64,000 nucleotides of DNA from a virus (IMGVR_UViG_3300016484_000735:14418-78417); one strand, 5' to 3'; counted from the stretch's first letter, positions 12,330-58,094 are shown. Translations and numbers: made by a program. Notes: a model not told the origin generated them from the letters alone.

Positions 12330-12382
12330 AATACAGCATTAGGTGCTGAATAAAAACGAAGGGACTCATCCGAGTCCTTTTT
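12330..12382 (+). terminator. Conserved 3' element copy A (AATACAGCATTAGGTGCT) plus terminator hairpin
   Basis: 18-nt identity to copies at 27129 (+) and 53108 (-); aagggactc-atcc-gagtccttt then T tract. Confidence 0.75.
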
Positions 12383-19490: not shown

Positions 19491-19618
19491 AGTTCCTCCT
19501 GAACCTAGATCCGATCGTATTTATGGGTGTTCTAGATCCTGTTTTTTGTGTACTCCCTCGTGGTACCGTGTTACAATGACACTGTGCCGTTACAGTAACC
19601 ACTCCACCGAGAGTTCAG

Positions 19619-25892: not shown

Positions 25893-27130
25893 CTGAACTG
25901 TACCGAGTGGTGGGTGGAGCTGTCCATCACTCTGATCCTCTGCACGTCGGGAACTTCTTCCCGAACAAGCTCCGTCATCATCGTGGCGTGATGCAGCGTC
26001 GCCAAGACCTGATTCTGTACCTCGCGAACCTGCACGCTGCCGCTGTTGAGACCGGGATGCCGTTGGGCATGATTCACATCCCGATGCGGCTGATGTCGCT
26101 GCGAGCTTGGTGTCAAGACTACCGAGTGATCCTCGATGCGTTCTTCAACGTCGAGCAGCTCGGCTTCAATCTCGGTGATGGTGACTTCGAGATCAGCACC
26201 CTGACGCCGAAGAACGTCACGAACGGGAAGCGAGCAGCATCGAACGCTGCGAAGGAGCTCGTGTACGAGGTGCCAGAACGCCCTGAGAACGGCAGCATCT
26301 CGAAGGTGTACATTCAGCAGCAGAACCGTGAAGCGATCCTGACTCGCCTCACGAACACCTCGCGCCTCGATCTGAAGGCGCCGGTTGAGTGGTTGCTGAA
26401 GCAGAGCGAGGTGAACTTCCACTTCGAGCGAGCTGGGAAGCTTCAACAGCGAGACACGAGCATCTGGCCGGTCCGTGGCGTCGAGACGTGGCCGTCGTGG
26501 CTTCGTGAGATGCTGTTCGGCGAGGGTGTCGACATCGACTCGGCGTACACTCAGTACCTCGTTGGTCGTCTGCGTGATGCATACAAAGGGCGTGAGACGC
26601 TGCTCGAGACGATGTTCCCAGACATTCTTCGGTCGTTGACCGACAAGAAGGCGTGGCGCATCGAACTCTGTGAAGGCGTGCTCGGGCTCGAACCGACCGA
26701 GGAGAACATCGGCGTCGTGAAGCGGCTGTGCATGAGTCTGGCGAACGGGTCCCGGATCAGTCCAGCGATCCTGCTTGGGAACCGATCGTTCAGCGTGACC
26801 GCTGACATCGTGATTCAGAGCACTGAGGACATCCGTCCTGAGAACTTGATCCGAATCGGTGAACGATTGCAGTCGATTGCGAAGCAGTACGTGAACGCTC
26901 GGAAGATGATCTGCACGTCGTCGATGCGAACGCGGGCGACCCGCGAGAATCAGAAGCGGGTGTTCAGCAGTTACTTCGAATGGGAACGTGAAGCACGGTA
27001 CGCGATCTGGGAACAGTGCGACCGACATGGCATCATGGTGCACGACGGCATCGACGGGATCCCAACGGAGTACCTCGATCGGATGCCACAGATCATGGAG
27101 ACGCTGAACATCCGACTCACACGCGGATAA
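25889..27130 (+). CDS. Family-A-related (TV-Pol-like) polymerase domain protein
   Basis: Motif A LR..L....VDIDSAY, motif B K.L..SLANG, motif C MVHDG in correct order. Confidence 0.55.
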   Translation: MTELYRVVGGAVHHSDPLHVGNFFPNKLRHHRGVMQRRQDLILYLANLHAAAVETGMPLGMIHIPMRLMSLRAWCQDYRVILDAFFNVEQLGFNLGDGDFEISTLTPKNVTNGKRAASNAAKELVYEVPERPENGSISKVYIQQQNREAILTRLTNTSRLDLKAPVEWLLKQSEVNFHFERAGKLQQRDTSIWPVRGVETWPSWLREMLFGEGVDIDSAYTQYLVGRLRDAYKGRETLLETMFPDILRSLTDKKAWRIELCEGVLGLEPTEENIGVVKRLCMSLANGSRISPAILLGNRSFSVTADIVIQSTEDIRPENLIRIGERLQSIAKQYVNARKMICTSSMRTRATRENQKRVFSSYFEWEREARYAIWEQCDRHGIMVHDGIDGIPTEYLDRMPQIMETLNIRLTRG

Positions 27131-27178
27131 TACAGCATTAGGTGCTAGATAAAATCGCGGGGACCAATTGGTCCCCGC
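27129..27178 (+). terminator. Conserved 3' element copy B plus palindromic hairpin at convergent junction
   Basis: AATACAGCATTAGGTGCTAGATAAAATC then gcggggacc-aatt-ggtccccgc. Confidence 0.75.
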
Positions 27179-50470: not shown

Positions 50471-50566
50471 AGTGGGGTGAGAACAGAGGTCAAAAACCAG
50501 CACTTCCATAAATACATCCTGAACAACCAGAGCAGCACCGCTGTCACCCCTTAGGAGAAAACTCAA

Positions 50567-52405
50567 ATGGCTACACTCATCTCTCCAGGCGTTAGCGTTA
50601 CCGTCGAAGACCAGAGCTTCTTCTTCCCGGTTTCGGCGACGACTGTCCCACTGTTCTTCGTCGCTACCCGTTCGGGCAAGACACAGACTGATGGCGTTAC
50701 CGCTGCTGCTGGTACGCTCGAGTCTGGTGTCGTCCGTACCGTGACTTCGCAGACTCAGTCCCTGCAGCTGTACGGTGTTCCGTACTTCGTGAACGACGTG
50801 TCTGGCCAAGAGTTCCACGGCGACGCCCGGAACGAATATGGCCTGCTGGCTCTGAACAGCTTCCTCGGCATCGGGAACCGTGCATACGTCGTCCGCGCTG
50901 ACGTGAACCTGAACGACACTCCAGAGACGTTCATCTCCCTCGGCACCCCGACCGCTGGCACCGCCTCGTTCGTTGGTATCGGCAACGGCACGATCTCCGG
51001 CATCAGCGCCGCTTCGTCGCAGGTGAAGCCGCAGACGATCGTTGTGTCGTTCACCTCGAACACGAACTTCAGCGTCACCGGCTCCGTCACCGGCCACATC
51101 GGCTCGGGCGTGGTTGGCACCGCATTCAACTCGACTGTCGTGTCGTTCAACATCGCTGCTGGCTCGGTGAACTTCGTGAACGGTGACAAGTTCACGTTCG
51201 CTCTGTCGTACGCGGCTGTTCCGACCGTCGGCAACACCGGCAACGGTACCGTCGTTGGTCTGAAGCCGGACACCCTCGCTGTTCCAGAAGCGATCACGAT
51301 CACGTTCGTCTCGCCGACGAACTACACCGTGTCGAACCTGTTCGGTCCAGCTGGTTCCGGTGTTGTTGGCTCGCCATTCGATGACAACCGTCTGAACTTC
51401 ACGATCGTTGCTGGCTCGACTCCGTTCGTGGCTGGTGACGAGTTCACCGTGACCGCTGCGACCGTCACGATCTCCTCACCGCTTGGTGCATCGGACGCAC
51501 AGCGTCGCGTCGCGATCGTGACCGCTCTGCAAGCTGCGATCAACAGCAACGTTGATGTTCGTTCGGAACTGTACGAGTACAACCTGATCCTGTGCCCAGG
51601 GTACCACGAAGTCGTTGACGAACTCGTCACGCTGTCGAACGATGTGTACGGCGAAGCATTCGTGATCGCTGACACTCCGTGCAACCTGAACCCAGACCAA
51701 GTCGCTCAGTGGGGCCTGACCTCCGCTCGCCAGTCGAAGTCGGAAGTTGCGTACTACTACCCATGGGCAATGGTTTCGAACCTCGATGGTCGGAACGTTC
51801 TGGCTGCTCCGTCGGGTGTCGCCCTCCGTACGATCGCGTACAGCGACGACCAAGCATACGTGTGGGAAGCACCGGCTGGTGTCTCTCGTGGTCTGACATT
51901 CGGTCCGACGCAAGTCGGTTACGTCACTGGCGATCTGGGTACCGCAACGACATTCGTCGAAGCGAACCTGAACGCTGGTCAGCGCGACAACCTGTACGAG
52001 TACTACAAGAACATCAACCCGATCGTGTTCTTCCCGGGTCGTGGCATCCTGATCTGGGGTCAGAAGACTTCGTCTCCGGCGGCTTCGGCAATGGACCGCA
52101 TCAACGTCGTCCGTCTGGTGATGTACCTCCGTCGTACGCTTCGCAAGGGTGCGATGCCGTTCGTGTTCGAACCGAACGACCAGATCACTCGCGACAACCT
52201 GAAGGCTGCCGCTGATGCAGTGATGAACGACATCATGGTGAAGCGTGGTCTGTCCGACTTCGCATCGTACTGCGATGACACGAACAACACTGCGGCTCGC
52301 ATCGATGCGAACGAGCTGTGGCTCGACATCGCGATCAAGCCAACGCGTGCGGCAGAATTCATCTACATCCCGATCCGCGTGGTGGCAACGTCCGCTTCGA
52401 TCTGA
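50567..52405 (+). CDS. gp18: Tail sheath protein gp18
   Basis: LISPGVSVTVED, YYYPW, APAG.SRG, RDNLY...INPI, WGQKT, DRINVVRL, FVFEPND. Confidence 0.97.
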   Translation: MATLISPGVSVTVEDQSFFFPVSATTVPLFFVATRSGKTQTDGVTAAAGTLESGVVRTVTSQTQSLQLYGVPYFVNDVSGQEFHGDARNEYGLLALNSFLGIGNRAYVVRADVNLNDTPETFISLGTPTAGTASFVGIGNGTISGISAASSQVKPQTIVVSFTSNTNFSVTGSVTGHIGSGVVGTAFNSTVVSFNIAAGSVNFVNGDKFTFALSYAAVPTVGNTGNGTVVGLKPDTLAVPEAITITFVSPTNYTVSNLFGPAGSGVVGSPFDDNRLNFTIVAGSTPFVAGDEFTVTAATVTISSPLGASDAQRRVAIVTALQAAINSNVDVRSELYEYNLILCPGYHEVVDELVTLSNDVYGEAFVIADTPCNLNPDQVAQWGLTSARQSKSEVAYYYPWAMVSNLDGRNVLAAPSGVALRTIAYSDDQAYVWEAPAGVSRGLTFGPTQVGYVTGDLGTATTFVEANLNAGQRDNLYEYYKNINPIVFFPGRGILIWGQKTSSPAASAMDRINVVRLVMYLRRTLRKGAMPFVFEPNDQITRDNLKAAADAVMNDIMVKRGLSDFASYCDDTNNTAARIDANELWLDIAIKPTRAAEFIYIPIRVVATSASI

Positions 52406-52448: not shown

Positions 52449-52483
52449 CGCATAAGTATAGAATGTTCAAGAAGAGCCTATCG

Positions 52484-53053
52484 ATGATCACGTTCAAGCA
52501 GTTCCTCGCAGAGTCCGAGCGTAAGATCTACGCAAAGAAGCTTGGCGATGTTGGCGCATTCACACCGGCGAAGGCTGAGGACAGTTACACGGTCGGTAAT
52601 GTCACGTTCAGTGCGAAGGACGGTCTCGGCTCAGTGCCGCACAATCAAGAGGTGTGGTACATGGGGTTCGTCGCCACGATGAAACCAAGCATGTTCTTGA
52701 AGATCGCGCTCGACGATGAAGGCTCACAAGTACCGACGTCGAAGGAGCTCGCGAAGCTCGTTCAAGACGGGTACGCCGTTGGGATTCCGTTCCTCGAGAT
52801 CGAGTTCGATCCGGATGGGAACGACCTCCCGAAGATCAAGGGTCACGAGGGTCGTGGTCGGATGCGCATGGTGCAGGATCTGAATGGTGATGAACCGATT
52901 CCAGTGCACTTCTTCCTGCGCGGTGGTCTGCGAGCTCGGAACGTCACTCGTGAGATGATCGACGAGGTGAAGCAAGGTGTGTACGCCGAGAAGTCATCTC
53001 GATTGGTGAAGAACCCTGTTGAACGGATCTGGCTCGACTACAGCGAGATGTAA
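52484..53053 (+). CDS. Hypothetical protein with capsid-targeting-like N-terminus; possible ParB/Srx fold
   Basis: MITFKQFLAE; IPFL...IKGHEGRGRM. Confidence 0.65.
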   Translation: MITFKQFLAESERKIYAKKLGDVGAFTPAKAEDSYTVGNVTFSAKDGLGSVPHNQEVWYMGFVATMKPSMFLKIALDDEGSQVPTSKELAKLVQDGYAVGIPFLEIEFDPDGNDLPKIKGHEGRGRMRMVQDLNGDEPIPVHFFLRGGLRARNVTREMIDEVKQGVYAEKSSRLVKNPVERIWLDYSEM

Positions 53054-53108
53054 ACAAAAACGGGAGCCATTGGCTCCCGTGATTTTATCTAGCACCTAAT
53101 GCTGTATT
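53053..53108 (-). terminator. Conserved 3' element copy C plus terminator
   Basis: Reverse complement AATACAGCATTAGGTGCTAGATAAAATC (53108-53081), acgggagcc-aat-ggctcccgt, T tract. Confidence 0.75.
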
Positions 53109-53122
53109 TGCGTTGAGTGGTG

Positions 53123-53665
53123 TTAAGACCTGATGAACTCGCAGCACGTGCGGTACAACACATCACGTGCGGCTGTCGGTTCGAATGGACGATCTTGTTC
53201 GTCACGCGTCATGATCAGGTGGTTCGTGCCGTACTTCTTGTATTCTTCGATACCGGCGTTGAACTGGTCCACCGTGATCTTGATGCGATCGTCTACGAAC
53301 TCAGCACGAATCGGCGGGCGAGTGACGAACACTTCCATCACATTGAACCGGCGCTTGAACTCTGCGTAGTACTGACGCGAGAGCGCGGTGTCTTCGCCAC
53401 GCAGGATCTTGTCGTATACGAGGTTCGAGACGATGAACCTATCGAGCAGGTACGTCTTGCTCTTGTCGAGTAGGTCGAACATCGTGAACAGGATCTCGAA
53501 GTCCTTCTCTGTGTTCATGCGAAGCAGGGCACCCGACGGCATCGTTTTCGGGAACTTCACCTCGACCGCATGCGGCCACATGTCACGGGCAACGTCAGCG
53601 AGCAGTGTGCTCTTGCCGCAGTTGTCCATGCCGTCGAACACGATGAACTTAGTTTGATTTGACAC
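53123..53665 (-). CDS. dNMP kinase (thymidylate kinase-like P-loop)
   Basis: GTG start 53665; FIVFDGMDNCGKSTL, LLDRF..S..VY. Confidence 0.8.
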   Translation of the reverse strand: MSNQTKFIVFDGMDNCGKSTLLADVARDMWPHAVEVKFPKTMPSGALLRMNTEKDFEILFTMFDLLDKSKTYLLDRFIVSNLVYDKILRGEDTALSRQYYAEFKRRFNVMEVFVTRPPIRAEFVDDRIKITVDQFNAGIEEYKKYGTNHLIMTRDEQDRPFEPTAARDVLYRTCCEFIRS

Positions 53666-54698
53666 GGCAGAAAACCTTGTTGTAGAAAGCGTCAGTCTCG
53701 CCTTCCGCGAAACGGAAGCGTCCGATCTCCACTTCATTATAACTCAGCGAGTTCAACCGGGCGCCGATCTCGCTTAGGTGCACGATCGTGTTCGGATTCC
53801 GGATCAGATCAGCATTGTACGTGACCACTGGGCAACCGTAGTGAAAGAACTCGATCGTGCCAGGATGCAGGACCGTGTCGATGTCATCGAGCATCACGAC
53901 CACCGGACGCTTCGCGAGAAGCTCGTAGTACTCAGACTTCGTCGGCTTCATCTTCCCGATGTACGCCCGCTCATGCTTCATCGAATCGTTCGGGTCAGTG
54001 GTCTCGATCGTCCAGCCGCGACCCGACAAGTTCAGCTCGTCGAACACGTCGATGAACTGATCGAACTTGTACGCCTTGTCGCTGATGCGGAACGGCCAGA
54101 AGATCTTCTGACGCTCAGCTTCGGTCTTGTGCGGTGGGTCGATCTTCGGCAGCATCGAGGCATGCACGCACTTCGTGTTCACGAAGACCTTGTCGACCAG
54201 GTCAGGACGAACCTCGAGAATGTACTCGCGCTGACGAGGGTTCAGCACTGTCGTGAACGCGCCGCGTTCGATCGAATTGAGATCGCTCTCAAAGAACCGG
54301 TCGATGTACGGGCGATCGAGCTCGGGAAGCTTCGTGATGTTGAAGTTGTTCGCGAACGGCTTCTCTCCGTTGTACCCAGTGATGTCGGTGATCACGAAGT
54401 CAGACAGACGATCAAGCGCCCAGATCATATCGGCGTTCAGCTCCCAGAAACGCTCTCGCGTCTCCACAGCATTCAGGCCGTACTCGAGGCACACGAACGA
54501 AACTCGTGTATGGTCTTTGAACCGCTCGAGAACTTCGTCGAAGTCGGCGGCACCGACCGGCACAGCCACGACCACCTGATCGAAGTTGGATGCCAATACT
54601 CGCGCCATCGTGAGCTGGAAGTTCCCATCCTTCAGGATCGAGTACTTCCCAGTCTCGTGGCTCCGCATGCTGAAGATGGGAATCCAGAGAACCCTCAC
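53649..54698 (-). CDS. GT-B glycosyltransferase, putative DNA-modifying
   Basis: GTG start overlapping upstream TGA (MRVLWIPIFS); IFWPFRISDKAYKF, EYYELL, PGTIEFFHYGCPVV resemble GT-B C-domain motifs. Confidence 0.65.
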   Translation of the reverse strand: MRVLWIPIFSMRSHETGKYSILKDGNFQLTMARVLASNFDQVVVAVPVGAADFDEVLERFKDHTRVSFVCLEYGLNAVETRERFWELNADMIWALDRLSDFVITDITGYNGEKPFANNFNITKLPELDRPYIDRFFESDLNSIERGAFTTVLNPRQREYILEVRPDLVDKVFVNTKCVHASMLPKIDPPHKTEAERQKIFWPFRISDKAYKFDQFIDVFDELNLSGRGWTIETTDPNDSMKHERAYIGKMKPTKSEYYELLAKRPVVVMLDDIDTVLHPGTIEFFHYGCPVVTYNADLIRNPNTIVHLSEIGARLNSLSYNEVEIGRFRFAEGETDAFYNKVFCRVKSN

Positions 54699-55396
54699 GA
54701 CAGGAAGCCTCGCACGTAGTTGAAGTCGCGCTCGAACACGTGGCCGTTGATCAGGTGGCAGTGGTACTCGCAGTCCTTGACGTCGATGCCGAGCTGACCA
54801 GCGACCATGTGCAGCAGACGCATCTGCAGGTAGAAGTCGAGCTGCATCACGACCGCGATGTTCTGCGAGCGCATCACCGTGCTCAGGATGAGCTTCCCGT
54901 TCCGACGGGTCAGGTGGTACGCGATCGTGCACGGGAACTCGAGCGTCTCGTCCTTGTCGAGGAGCTGCAGATCGTCCTCGTTCAGGATCATCAGCGAGCA
55001 CCGACGCGAGTTCGGGTGATCAATGAGTTCTTGCAGGATTGCCGGGAGCTGCTTCGCGATCCGTGGACCGTAGAACGTGTTGAAGTTCGCCGGCAGCGCA
55101 TCGCTCTTAGGCTTTGAGACGAATTGCGCGACTTGCGGGTACTTCTCGAAGGCAGCTTGGGCGTCGGTGCCACCGCTGATCATGAAGTCCCAGAACGTTG
55201 CTGCGTACTCGTAGCTGATGCGGTTGATGCGCGGGTCGGTGAGTACGAAGTCGCGAGTGTCAGCGACACGGAACGTGACATCGATCAGCTCGTTCGCTTT
55301 GCCGATCCGGGTGTCTTCGACGTATTCAGGGGTGTCGAGTGCCGCACGGCACAGACCCTTGAAAGCATCGGTCATTGTTGCGAAGTGCAGTTCCAA
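54695..55396 (-). CDS. Thymidylate-synthase / dCMP-hydroxymethylase homologue, dCMP-type
   Basis: TTG start after AAGGAG; YGPRI, NSRR, FPC (catalytic Cys), MRSQN..., Asp at the TS N177 position. Confidence 0.85.
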   Translation of the reverse strand: MELHFATMTDAFKGLCRAALDTPEYVEDTRIGKANELIDVTFRVADTRDFVLTDPRINRISYEYAATFWDFMISGGTDAQAAFEKYPQVAQFVSKPKSDALPANFNTFYGPRIAKQLPAILQELIDHPNSRRCSLMILNEDDLQLLDKDETLEFPCTIAYHLTRRNGKLILSTVMRSQNIAVVMQLDFYLQMRLLHMVAGQLGIDVKDCEYHCHLINGHVFERDFNYVRGFLS

Positions 55397-55406
55397 GTAG
55401 TTCTCC

Positions 55407-55901
55407 TTATTGGTGTTTGCCGAGGCGGTGTGCGAGATCAAGGTACGCTTCAGCTTGATCAGGCGTGAGGCGCGGTCCGACGTTCTGGAAGACAGCGATT
55501 TTCGGATGCAGACCGCAGTACTTCATTGCATCCTCGAGGTACGAGGTGTTGTGGGTCTTCTGCTGTCCCATGCTGATCAGCACCGTCGTCGGGATGTCGA
55601 TCTTGGGCACCATTCTATCGCCCTTGAGCTCGAACGCGAACCCGAACACGAATGTGGTCTGAAGGAACTCGACCATCTTCGCCGGCGGCATCTCCCACCA
55701 CAGCGGGTACACGAGGCACATCGCATCGGTTTCTAGGACGAGTTGACGAAGATCGACATCCTCGATGTCTTCGTCGTACAGGTTCAACCACGTAACCTGG
55801 TGCTCTGCTTCGTTCGCACCCTTGCGGTACTGCTGCGCGAGCTGCCCAGTGAACGACTTCTCGGAGGTGTCCGGATGCGCGATGATCTGAAGGATTTTCA
55901 T
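55407..55901 (-). CDS. Flavodoxin-like-fold NAD(P)H oxidoreductase (Flavodoxin_2 / KefF-MdaB type)
   Basis: MKILQIIAHP...SFT, V..LNLY, D...LVYPLWW.MPP......F...GFAF; TACAAT -10 at 55928-55933 (-). Confidence 0.85.
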   Translation of the reverse strand: MKILQIIAHPDTSEKSFTGQLAQQYRKGANEAEHQVTWLNLYDEDIEDVDLRQLVLETDAMCLVYPLWWEMPPAKMVEFLQTTFVFGFAFELKGDRMVPKIDIPTTVLISMGQQKTHNTSYLEDAMKYCGLHPKIAVFQNVGPRLTPDQAEAYLDLAHRLGKHQ

Positions 55902-56072
55902 GGCGAGTAAATAGCTTCTACATGCCTATTGTATCAAGCTCGGACCACCGCTGAACCTGTGCCTAGGATCTACAGAGCACCCGCCCCAGGATGCCACTGG
56001 AAATCGACCCAGGACATAAATAGGTTCTGATCAACTCAGCTCTAGAGTGTTGAGCTAACTGGAGAACATCAC

Positions 56073-56666
56073 ATGGCAACTCTGTCGAACTTCGGGATCC
56101 CGGGCGCTGGCGCTGGTATCCTGCACCCACGCCTGAAGAACAAGTTCCGGATCACGTTCCAGAACATGGGTCAGCTCGTTGCGGGTACGAACACCCGTAA
56201 CCTGACGATGCAGGTCACGAACATCACCCTGCCGAACCTGACCTTTGAAGAAGTCACGCTGCATCGGTACAACTCGACCGCGTACGTTGCCGGCAAGCAC
56301 TCGTGGGAACCGATCTCCGTCACTGTTGAAGACGACATCGGCGGCCTCGCTGCTACCGTGGTGAAGGCTCAGCTCGAGACTCAAGGCCGCATCATCGGCG
56401 TTGACCTCGACGGCCGTTGGCTGAACACTGCCGCAACCGGTACCGACTACAAGTTCGGTGCGAAGATCGAACAACTTGATGGCGACGAAGGTGTCGTTCA
56501 GACCTGGATCCTTGAAGGCTGCATGATCACTGGCGCTGACTTCGGTGACCGTGACTACTCGGCTTCGGAAGCTGCAACGATCACGATGCAGGTTCGCTTC
56601 GACCACGCTCGTCACGTCGAATCTGGCGGCGGGTACGGCACTGCTCTGGGCGGTAACGTCGCCTAA
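56073..56666 (+). CDS. gp19: Tail tube protein gp19
   Basis: P.LKNKFRITF, LPNL.FEE, YVAGKHSWEPISVT, W.LEGC; late promoter 56017-56022. Confidence 0.88.
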   Translation: MATLSNFGIPGAGAGILHPRLKNKFRITFQNMGQLVAGTNTRNLTMQVTNITLPNLTFEEVTLHRYNSTAYVAGKHSWEPISVTVEDDIGGLAATVVKAQLETQGRIIGVDLDGRWLNTAATGTDYKFGAKIEQLDGDEGVVQTWILEGCMITGADFGDRDYSASEAATITMQVRFDHARHVESGGGYGTALGGNVA

Positions 56667-56759: not shown

Positions 56760-58094
56760 ATGGCGTCGTTCAACATCTCTAGTCTCCTCAGCGATACCAA
56801 GACGCAGCTTCAGAAGGCGTCTCTTGATAAGTTCGGGGCGGCTGTCGAGGACTTCAGCAAGGGCAAGCTCACTGAGCTCTTGAAGAAGGGTTCTAGCACT
56901 GGCACTGCCACGTCGAACCGTGACGATCAGAACACGATGTACGCGCAGTCGTACGCCGCGGCCCTCTCTGGTCAGTCAGACTATCGCCCGAAGCTGAAGT
57001 TCCTGTTCAAGGTCGAGTTCGGGTTCTCTGCGAACACAAGGGCCGCCATCAAGCAGATCGCTGGCAGTGATCCGCAGCTCCAAGCGGCAATGAGCCGGAT
57101 GCTTGCGAACGAGTTCACGTTCATGGTGAAGTCTGTCGAGCGTCCGAAGGTTGACTTCGAATACGACGAAGACAACAACATGTACAACTTCCGGACGAAG
57201 GCGCTGAAGCGAATCGTTCACCGCGATCTGACGATCCAGTTCATGGACGACGTTGGGAACCGCGTGTTCGACTTCTTCCGGATTCTGATGGCTGTGCACT
57301 CGCCGATCACCCGTAGTCAGTTCATTCGCGATGGCGGTGCTGCTATTCCGTCTTCATCCAAGCTCAAAACCGGATCCGGCATGTCTTGGATTCTCGGTCA
57401 GGGCGCTGGTGCGAACAACGCTAACCGCGCGGTGGTGAACAGTGACTTCGGGCAGTCGATCGACTACATCCGTGTGAAGCAGATGTTCGCAGACCCTAAC
57501 CAAGGCATCTCCGAAGCGGCGCAGATGGTCGCGTTCGACTTCGTGAACCCGCGCATCGTCTCGTTCGATCTTGATGAACTCTCACACGAAGCAAACGATG
57601 TGAACACGCTCACGATGGTGTTCGGGTACGACTGGATGGAAATGGTGAAGATGGGTTCGCTGAACCAGTTCCGCAAGGACTACACCGAGTCGATGTACAA
57701 GATCCGCGCGAACAACATTCAGACCGTTCCACTTGACGTGATGCCTGGGAAGCCTGGGATGTCGAATTCGAAGAACGCACAAGGTAAGCAAGGTCTGCTC
57801 TCGAAGGTTCTCGGGCAACAGACAGACAAGTACACAGAGAAGCTCACTTCCGATGTGCTCTCGCGCGGCGTCACATCAGTGTTCGGGAACGGCACCGTTG
57901 GTAAGCAGCTATCTGGTCAAGTTACCTCTGGCCTCTCGAAGCAGCTTGGCGGTTTTGTCAGCGGTGGCCTCAAGGAACGATCAAGCGGGTTGTTCAACTC
58001 GTTCTTCAGCCCCGGCTCGAAGGTCGCTTCGTCCGGTACGACTGAAGGCGGCACAATCACAGCATCCGCCGCATCCACCGATGGGAGTGCATGA
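56760..58094 (+). CDS. Tube-fold baseplate protein (gp54/gp48-like)
   Basis: PKLKFLFKVEF, VK.VERPK..F, LTIQFMDD, F.NPRI.SF; late promoter 56732-56737. Confidence 0.6.
   Translation: MASFNISSLLSDTKTQLQKASLDKFGAAVEDFSKGKLTELLKKGSSTGTATSNRDDQNTMYAQSYAAALSGQSDYRPKLKFLFKVEFGFSANTRAAIKQIAGSDPQLQAAMSRMLANEFTFMVKSVERPKVDFEYDEDNNMYNFRTKALKRIVHRDLTIQFMDDVGNRVFDFFRILMAVHSPITRSQFIRDGGAAIPSSSKLKTGSGMSWILGQGAGANNANRAVVNSDFGQSIDYIRVKQMFADPNQGISEAAQMVAFDFVNPRIVSFDLDELSHEANDVNTLTMVFGYDWMEMVKMGSLNQFRKDYTESMYKIRANNIQTVPLDVMPGKPGMSNSKNAQGKQGLLSKVLGQQTDKYTEKLTSDVLSRGVTSVFGNGTVGKQLSGQVTSGLSKQLGGFVSGGLKERSSGLFNSFFSPGSKVASSGTTEGGTITASAASTDGSA

Follow-up and report, generated by a model that had tools for sequence, protein, structure and literature searches.

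The gene cassette

This report concerns a viral gene cassette that is predicted to serve the hypermodification of cytosine in phage DNA. It was found in a stretch of 64,000 nucleotides (IMGVR_UViG_3300016484_000735:14418-78417), hereafter called the window, which lies on a viral contig from IMG/VR (135,176 bases, rated approximately 43% complete). At positions 53123-55901 four tightly coupled genes are encoded on the minus strand, antisense between the genes for the tail sheath and the tail tube. In the order of the minus strand, and together with the ribosome-binding site of the second gene, they are:

55901-55407, minus strand: gene 1, Flavodoxin_2 NAD(P)H oxidoreductase, 164 amino acids, ATG start, TAA stop
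55408-55403, minus strand: AAGGAG ribosome-binding site of gene 2, overlapping the stop of gene 1, 6 nucleotides before the TTG at 55396
55396-54695, minus strand: gene 2, thymidylate synthase homologue of the RB69 gp48 type, 233 amino acids, TTG start, TGA stop
54698-53649, minus strand: gene 3, GT-B glycosyltransferase, 349 amino acids, GTG start, GTGA overlap with the stop of gene 2
53665-53123, minus strand: gene 4, thymidylate-kinase-like P-loop kinase, 180 amino acids, GTG start, 17-nucleotide overlap with gene 3

Homologues of gene 2 in related loci have an ATG start at the same aligned position as the TTG of the window, and the 17-nucleotide overlap of genes 3 and 4 recurs in the loci L009, L013 and L015. 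The original prediction, made from the sequence alone, had described four coupled minus-strand genes with a TTG start, GTGA and 17-nucleotide overlaps and a terminator, and every detail of this anatomy that can be checked is correct. Its four gene assignments (flavin oxidoreductase, thymidylate synthase homologue, GT-B glycosyltransferase and nucleotide kinase) agree with the results of Pfam, PHROG and Foldseek searches, except that the kinase is of a different subtype (see below).

The thymidylate synthase homologue

Gene 2 matches the Pfam family Thymidylat_synt (PF00303) with 33.7 bits (cut-off 24.3) and phrog_160 with E 3e-30. It is 59.9% identical to ORF048c (gp48) of phage RB69 over 97% of its length, which confirms the resemblance to RB69-like arabinosylated hydroxycytosine systems that had been considered in the original prediction. 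Against the solved structures 9iqu, 9iqc and 9ir2 an E-value of 1.7e-84 is obtained. In an alignment with Escherichia coli ThyA, T4 gp42, RB69 gp48 and eight relatives (ThyA numbering throughout), gene 2 carries C146 together with E143 (L143E), N169 (D169N) and D177 (N177D). Its FPCT and MQLD segments align to APCH and PFN of ThyA, and the segment at position 169 reads RSQN in the window and in all members of the clade, RSCD in ThyA and RSND in T4 gp42.

The proteins RB69 gp48 and DLP3 gp80 convert deoxycytidine monophosphate (dCMP) to 5-hydroxy-dCMP, with the oxygen derived from O2 and with loosely bound flavin mononucleotide (FMN) (Lee et al., NAR 2026, PMC13326640). According to the same study, the 5-hydroxy-dCMP synthase branch is marked by N177D and by an acidic residue at position 143, with D169N as the diagnostic; for a flavin-containing crystal structure of the HY126 homologue the study refers to He et al. 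(Nat Chem Biol 2026). Because C146, E143, N169 and D177 are present in gene 2, while ThyA and T4 gp42 keep D169, gene 2 is filed here as a predicted 5-hydroxy-dCMP synthase, the chemistry of which is taken from the literature on its homologues.

Glycosyltransferase and kinase

Gene 3 belongs to phrog_3891 (E 4e-74); a search of its sequence against Pfam, glycosyltransferase families included, gave no family match. With the gene next after the synthase in 354 phage records it shares 39-42% identity; the neighbors of that gene are annotated as thymidylate synthase or kinase. It aligns to RB69 gp47 and then to gp46, which represent one gene split by a sequencing error, the predicted arabinosyltransferase 1 (PMC13326640). 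The AlphaFold2 model of gene 3, based on 32 homologues, has a predicted local distance difference test (pLDDT) score of 93.7 and displays two Rossmann-like halves, that is, a GT-B fold. Foldseek matched it to GT-B enzymes, among them MshA (3c4q) and the HY126 glycosyltransferase 9iqz, and 3c4q is also the top structural match given for RB69 gp46:47 (PMC13326640). Gene 3 is therefore predicted to be a GT-B DNA glycosyltransferase of the RB69 gp46:47 / DLP3 gp79 type, which would add the base-proximal sugar.

Gene 4 matches phrog_761 (E 3.5e-16) and is 30% identical to RB69 gp45. It has counterparts in 344 phage records; the T4-like genera concerned are those found for the transferase, with almost equal numbers. 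Among solved structures YorR (2axp/3kb2) comes closest, and it is also the one given for DLP3 gp78 (PMC13326640). Since its score against the Pfam family Thymidylate_kin (PF02223) is 17.3 bits and thus below the gathering threshold of 27, gene 4 is not called a thymidylate kinase; we file it as thymidylate-kinase-like (RB69 gp45 / DLP3 gp78 type). Hence, the proposal of a kinase holds as far as a P-loop nucleotide kinase is concerned, but not for the deoxynucleoside monophosphate kinase type of T4 gp1. Orthologues of gene 4 are named only "nucleotide kinase", and the 5-hydroxy-dCMP kinase tested in RB69 is the gp1-type enzyme (PMC13326640). A tblastn search with T4 gp1 gave no match in the 135-kb contig, which covers about 43% of the genome.

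The flavoprotein

Gene 1 scores 70.6 bits against the Pfam family Flavodoxin_2 (PF02525; cut-off 27). Its AlphaFold2 model, based on 28 homologues, has a pLDDT of 95.3 and a flavodoxin-like fold. The top Foldseek matches are the NAD(P)H:quinone oxidoreductases 3lcm and 4r81, FMN azoreductases and NQO2, with template modeling scores (normalized by the query) of about 0.8. These data bear out the assignment of the first gene as a flavodoxin-like NAD(P)H oxidoreductase. Across the 28 homologues an N-terminal AHP..SFT segment and a central PxWWxMPPA segment vary hardly or not at all, and both align with the corresponding parts of 4r81 and 3lcm. Profile matches of gene 1 include a protein of 174 amino acids titled "NAD(P)H-FMN oxidoreductase" (PDB 5lva).

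The cellular quinone reductases and azoreductases of the Flavodoxin_2 family (3lcm, 4r81, AzoR, NQO1/NQO2) share with gene 1 the fold, and they have N-terminal and central segments that align with those of gene 1 and presumably belong to the flavin site. However, these enzymes comprise approximately 190-230 amino acids as opposed to 164 in gene 1, which lacks an internal segment of about 15-25 residues and part of the C-terminus. Sequence identity to the cellular enzymes is just 13-22%, and gene 1 falls into a clade of its own.

Among 50,697 phage records no match to gene 1 was found at E 1e-3, and the predicted viral proteins yielded just two weak structural matches. Metagenomic data contain 42 homologues with 46-63% identity, all of them about 164 amino acids long. 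The identical flavoprotein is also encoded on a contig of 201 kb, and the clade has further relatives of 351 kb and 383 kb. The dN/dS ratio of gene 1 is about 0.26 and resembles those of the other three cassette genes (0.20-0.32), all of which are rough values due to saturated dS. In the literature covered, to which He et al. (2026) does not belong, we found no paper describing such a flavoprotein or any phage flavin reductase tied to DNA hypermodification. The flavoprotein is the only candidate novelty of the operon.

Co-conservation of the flavoprotein with 5-hydroxycytosine genes

Among the related cassette loci, all those in which the DNA reaches far enough (L004-L009, L012-L015 and L022) place the flavoprotein gene immediately 5′ of the genes for synthase, transferase and kinase, in the interval bounded by sheath and tube (11 of 11), and in some of them it overlaps the synthase gene. 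The profile search of 1.84 billion representative proteins returned a graded series of further short flavoprotein relatives, and with them a second genomic context. Here, a flavoprotein with 34% identity to gene 1 is encoded on a 356-kb contig, in a co-directional block approximately 6 kb upstream of a D169N synthase. The order of genes in this block is a uracil-DNA glycosylase-like gene, the flavoprotein, a SIS sugar isomerase, several open reading frames (ORFs), an APH/nucleotidyltransferase fusion, a HAD phosphatase, the synthase, an ORF, the transferase and the kinase. Compared to the window proteins, the D169N synthase (346 amino acids) is 31% identical, the transferase 50% and the kinase 51%. 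This block represents the arabinose-type cluster known from RB69 and HY126, here in a different lineage of jumbo phages and accompanied by a flavoprotein gene.

In three more contigs the flavoprotein gene adjoins the SIS gene or is separated from it by one short ORF. Genes for NAMPT, thioredoxin and NAD kinase are located upstream of the flavoprotein in the 356-kb contig and in two of these three contigs; they constitute a phage NAD(P) supply module beside an NAD(P)H-consuming pathway. One further relative, found at E 4e-21, adjoins a ribosomal protein gene and is probably cellular.

A quick maximum-likelihood tree places the flavoproteins of both phage contexts in one clade of 47 rows, apart from 35 cellular-like rows (SH-aLRT, the approximate likelihood ratio test, 96), with the flavoproteins of the cassette context as one subgroup. 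Gene 1 thus appears to belong to a phage-specific Flavodoxin_2 subfamily that accompanies 5-hydroxy-dCMP synthase genes in two arrangements, and the search for synteny between Flavodoxin_2 and thymidylate synthase genes supports a co-conservation of the flavoprotein with the trio, both in the 11 cassette loci and in the second arrangement. The trio of synthase, transferase and kinase is found without any flavoprotein in RB69-type phages and in locus L017. For L017, a 171-amino-acid ORF upstream of the synthase was considered as a divergent flavoprotein and rejected, being HAD-phosphatase-like and without a match to the flavoprotein profile. Two ORFs around the synthase of L016 (200 and 207 amino acids) were likewise rejected, one being HAD-like and the other without a family.

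Several local features of these loci were noted as well. In L015 an extra ORF of 107 amino acids lies between the flavoprotein and synthase genes. L006 has an insertion of approximately 860 bp between the synthase and transferase genes (L006:1964-2828), which holds an ORF of 61 amino acids and, on the minus strand, one of 238 amino acids; the latter contains an HNH-like "HHIVP...N..N" motif and probably encodes a homing endonuclease. In L022 the synthase-transferase junction is occupied by two small ORFs on the minus strand. The D169N synthase of the second lineage (L016:4304-5344, 346 amino acids) begins with about 75 additional residues, acidic in character and including cysteine, that have no counterpart in the other homologues. 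In L023:1-4273, L025:793-3593 and L026:1-3616 the NAMPT, thioredoxin and NAD kinase genes are found just 5′ of the flavoprotein and an arabinose-type 5-hydroxycytosine (5hoC) cluster, to which L026 adds a NUDIX/nucleotidyltransferase gene.

Proposed pathway

Based on this dataset, we hypothesize that the cassette is a glycosyl-5hoC operon with gene 1 as a dedicated flavin reductase, a reading that we consider reasonably probable as a whole. Gene 2 would hydroxylate dCMP at C5 by means of reduced flavin and O2, yielding 5-hydroxy-dCMP. Gene 1 would regenerate the reduced flavin from NAD(P)H, such that the pair of gene 1 and gene 2 would form a two-component flavin monooxygenase that is independent of the flavin reductase of the host. 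Gene 4 would phosphorylate the modified nucleotide, the host nucleoside diphosphate kinase would complete the triphosphate, and the phage polymerase would incorporate it. Finally, gene 3 would add the base-proximal sugar to 5hoC in the DNA, probably from a uridine diphosphate (UDP)-sugar of the host. To judge from the homology of genes 2 to 4, production of glycosyl-5hoC DNA by the core trio is highly probable. A role of gene 1 as flavin reductase of the synthase, as its fold, its synteny in two architectures and its conservation suggest, has in our opinion slightly better than even prospects.

The original prediction had proposed a flavin-dependent hydroxylation of dCMP at C5 without folate, followed by a kinase step and by glycosylation. 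These steps are published for RB69, DLP3 and HY126 (PMC13326640), and this part of the proposal stands; however, the proper parallel is 5-hydroxycytosine and not hydroxymethylcytosine.

With respect to the sugar, tblastn searches with T4 gp56, the T4 beta-glucosyltransferase and RB69 gp50-55 gave no match in the 135-kb contig (about 43% complete), nor did the contig contain matches to the genes for NAMPT, NAD kinase and SIS that belong to the second architecture. A nucleotidyltransferase, a GT1-family gene, a second thymidylate synthase homologue or a homologue of the arabinose pathway was found neither in the cassette nor in the contig. As cassette and contig lack sugar-activation genes, a host UDP-sugar is probably the simplest donor for gene 3, and the minimal cassette may attach this sugar to give a glycosyl-5hoC base that has not yet been described. 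Since no dCTPase was found and over half of the genome lies outside the contig, a complete replacement of cytosine cannot be claimed.

The presence of an own reductase may be viewed in terms of flavin supply. A genome of roughly 300 kb (from the completeness) with 57% G+C would demand far more modified deoxycytidine triphosphate for each particle than does a phage of 170 kb with a lower G+C content. When two-component flavin halogenases were expressed in E. coli, the expression of the native flavin reductase was too low for them (PMC11015028). Flavin supply is a plausible explanation for an own reductase. We put forward that the shortened phage Flavodoxin_2 subfamily comprises dedicated NAD(P)H:flavin reductases of the thymidylate synthase-fold dCMP 5-hydroxylase, and the two together, as a virus-encoded two-component flavin monooxygenase serving DNA hypermodification, would be without precedent; we give this generalization an even chance. 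Within it, the idea that high-G+C jumbo phages keep the flavin reductase because the host enzyme cannot meet the demand is just as evenly balanced.

Points against the proposal and alternative explanations

Several points weigh against the proposed role of gene 1 and the completeness of the pathway. Gene 1 has no clear ribosome-binding site in the window. The 11 adjacent cases stem from one phage clade and largely reflect one inheritance. Typical members of the Flavodoxin_2 family hold their flavin tightly and reduce quinones or azo compounds, and they are not proven reductases of free flavin. RB69-type phages manage without a flavoprotein gene, which is therefore non-essential to the pathway. 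In the second architecture the flavoprotein gene lies beside a block for NAD salvage, NAD kinase and thioredoxin, approximately 6 kb from the synthase, and its link to the cluster may be redox or NAD metabolism. Moreover, the 135-kb contig, that is, about 43% of the genome, yielded no dCTPase, no T4 gp1-type kinase, no second glycosyltransferase and no sugar-activation gene.

Some of these points would fit a scenario in which the trio makes glycosyl-5hoC DNA, while the flavoprotein is a general redox gene (quinone or azo reductase, NAD(P)H sink, protection against oxidants) that is merely carried on the same transcript. The closest structures of gene 1 are indeed quinone reductases and azoreductases, which mostly keep their flavin bound, and both the gene neighborhood of the second architecture and the RB69-type phages, which do without a flavoprotein, point in the same direction. 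However, the phage subfamily is found only together with 5hoC genes, in two arrangements of which the 5hoC pathway is the sole common feature, and in the lineage of the window there is no NAD module near the flavoprotein. Its gene is translationally close to, or overlaps, that of the synthase, an enzyme known to need flavin (PMC13326640). We thus regard a general redox gene as unlikely. A role in some other step of the modification appears more doubtful still. The flavoprotein might remove hydrogen peroxide or oxidized by-products of an uncoupled hydroxylase, or it might reduce a sugar or base intermediate, similar to the role as "sugar or heterocycle reductase" suggested for RB69 gp50. Such a role would agree with a protein that is co-conserved with the cluster but has no assigned chemistry, and with the three contigs in which the flavoprotein is found at, or one short ORF from, the SIS isomerase gene and not the synthase gene. 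Yet the cassette of the window lacks sugar-synthesis genes and nevertheless keeps the flavoprotein right before the synthase, and no precedent for this role was found.

A different objection concerns gene 2 itself, which belongs to the same Pfam family as T4-type dCMP hydroxymethylase and ordinary dTMP synthase, and many database records label its homologues as such. If it were one of these, the operon would make glycosyl-hydroxymethylcytosine or only supply nucleotides. This appears very improbable, as gene 2 has N169 along with E143 and D177, whereas T4 gp42 and ThyA keep D169, and as it is 60% identical to a verified hydroxylase, compared to 26% identity to T4 gp42 in a partial alignment of 150 residues. 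We prefer the reading of a glycosyl-5hoC operon in which gene 1 supplies reduced flavin to the synthase.

Relation to known systems

The closest known systems are the gene clusters for arabinosyl-5-hydroxycytosine in Straboviridae, namely RB69 gp48-gp47:46-gp45, DLP3 gp80-79-78 and the HY126 Afh cluster (PMC13326640; He et al., Nat Chem Biol 2026), which contain the same three genes in the same order as the cassette. Relative to the RB69 type, the synthase is 60% identical with the full signature, the transferase 39-42% and the kinase 30-39%. As the trio of synthase, transferase and kinase represents this already characterized glycosyl-5-hydroxycytosine pathway, the operon as a whole is not new, and the original prediction of a new DNA-modification operon has to be withdrawn in that form. 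Unlike the RB69-type systems, the cassette and the 135-kb contig lack the arabinose activation genes (isomerase, kinase/uridylyltransferase, phosphatase), the U32-family gene, the second transferase, the gp1-type kinase and the dCTPase. On the other hand, the cassette adds a flavoprotein gene that is unmatched in phage records, and its carrier is a jumbo myovirus of about 57% G+C in which the operon is located within the block of tail genes. What is new, as a candidate, is that jumbo phages carry the pathway in a minimal version of four genes, one of which may encode a dedicated reductase.

The same trio is present as gp216-215-214 in the Rhizobium phage RL38J1 (Pootjesviridae; hexosyl-5-hydroxycytosine), a phage that is not T4-like and is compared here by its published description (PMC13326640). 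In RL38J1 the sugars derive from UDP-hexoses and not from arabinose, no flavoprotein is reported, and the later sugars are added by two further transferases that are encoded elsewhere in the genome (PMC13326640).

With regard to gene 1, a comparison is offered by two-component flavin-dependent monooxygenases and halogenases. In a similar manner, the cassette encodes an oxygenase that, by its homologues, works with loosely bound reduced flavin and O2, genetically linked to a small flavodoxin-fold NAD(P)H oxidoreductase. SsuE/SsuD and tryptophan halogenase with its flavin reductase are examples with a separate NAD(P)H:flavin reductase. The cassette differs in that its oxygenase has the fold of thymidylate synthase and its reductase belongs to Flavodoxin_2, the members of which mostly keep their flavin; a transfer of flavin between the two proteins is proposed only.

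The 5-hydroxycytosine pathway has been described only in 2025-2026, and Lee et al. left open how a folate-type enzyme came to use flavin, without stating the supply of reduced flavin (PMC13326640). An operon of hydroxylase and reductase would constitute a ready-made two-protein system for reconstitution and a direct handle on the source of reduced flavin for a hydroxylase with thymidylate synthase fold. The flavoprotein could also raise the yields of 5hoC DNA in heterologous hosts, and the unit of four genes is small enough to be moved or engineered. With this cassette the predicted range of the pathway, which includes T4-like phages and phages of Rhizobium, reaches a clade of jumbo phages that are uncultivated. 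The data suggest a further sugar variant of modified cytosine, which may bear on the evasion of restriction, CRISPR and type IV defence.

Genomic setting

The sheath protein encoded in the window shares 56% identity with its counterpart in the Ralstonia phage RsoM2USA (344 kb), and 45-53% with those in jumbo phages of Xanthomonas, Stenotrophomonas and Pseudomonas. On the basis of these identities the source virus is assigned as an uncultivated jumbo myovirus of about 57% G+C. The genes that flank the cassette are:

50567-52405, plus strand: tail sheath gene, identified by Pfam and PHROG scans
52463-53053, plus strand: ORF of 196 amino acids between the sheath gene and the cassette, convergent with the cassette
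56073-56666, plus strand: tail tube gene, PHROG 4542 (E 7e-44)

The predicted antisense position inside the late structural region is thus confirmed. The ORF at 52463-53053 has no match in Pfam and PHROG scans and is kept at the same place, with 50-62% identity, in those related cassette loci that reach so far. A second consecutive gene (56760-58094, plus strand) also matches the tail tube PHROG 4542 (E 3.6e-10), and the two genes at 56073-56666 and 56760-58094 may be tube paralogues.

In RsoM2USA, the nearest cultured relative, the interval between sheath and tube holds co-directional genes only, and the cassette is therefore an insertion relative to this phage. A megablast search of the 3-kb region against phage records gave no match, so that protein-level searches alone are informative. 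The G+C content of the cassette (0.55-0.57) is the same as that of its surroundings, and the cassette is kept across relatives whose sheath proteins share just 77-84% identity. A recent foreign insertion was considered; "recent" is rejected in view of this conservation and the matching G+C content, together with the phage's own class of promoter and the common 3′-end element described below.

Promoter and 3′-end signals

The following signals were identified around the cassette:

55936-55928, minus strand: extended -10 promoter-like box TGATACAAT, 27 nucleotides 5′ of the ATG of gene 1
56016-56022, plus strand: ATAAATA box in the divergent intergenic region, 5′ of the tail tube gene, kept in the aligned loci
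53081-53108, minus strand: 28-nucleotide 3′-end element, starting with AATACAGCATTAGGTGCT, just upstream of the terminator hairpin
53060-53080, both strands: bidirectional intrinsic terminator hairpin, stem of 9 bp with 7 G-C pairs, T-runs on both strands

The upstream regions of ten related loci and the window (approximately 7 distinct sequences) were aligned. The hexamer TA(C/T)AAT is found at the identical aligned position in all 11 loci and the TG of the extended -10 in 8 of 11, and the flanks vary. Within the window TGNTACAAT occurs 7 times, compared to 0.47 expected, and none of 100 shuffles gave 7 copies. The sites are 2880, 11381, 11601, 19569, 21926 and 39034 on the plus strand and 55928 on the minus strand, often 3′ of an AGTTCT box. 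Of the six other copies, five precede by 26-42 nucleotides a start codon equipped with a ribosome-binding site, and most of them lie within a group of small genes named early in the initial reading of the sequence. This motif is likely the phage's class of promoter for the host polymerase. A TACAAT promoter of the operon's own, as originally proposed, is supported by positional conservation and motif enrichment, though a strict sigma-70 scan of the window did not call the box.

The ATAAATA box occurs 6 times in the window (0.32 expected), at 50508 (5′ of the sheath gene), 56016, 60541, 39536 and 23849 on the plus strand and at 19518 on the minus strand. It presumably resembles the late promoter of T4. 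The box marks the neighboring sheath and tube genes as late genes under a different promoter class. For the operon itself, transcription would start at an extended -10 promoter of the host type, which sets it apart from the surrounding late structural genes, and it probably follows a different schedule. A host-type promoter fits the need for modified precursor before and during replication.

The terminator hairpin at 53060-53080 scores on both strands and ends both the operon and the convergent plus-strand ORF that stops at 53053, in agreement with the shared terminator proposed initially. The 28-nucleotide element in front of it (53081-53108, minus strand) is identical to 27129-27156 (plus strand) and similar to 12330-12356 (plus strand). 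These copies mark three gene ends, and each of them is followed by a different G+C hairpin, so that the element looks like a modular 3′-end signal. Taken together, the enrichment of the promoter motif and the repeated 28-nucleotide element indicate that the cassette uses the promoter and 3′-end grammar of the phage itself.

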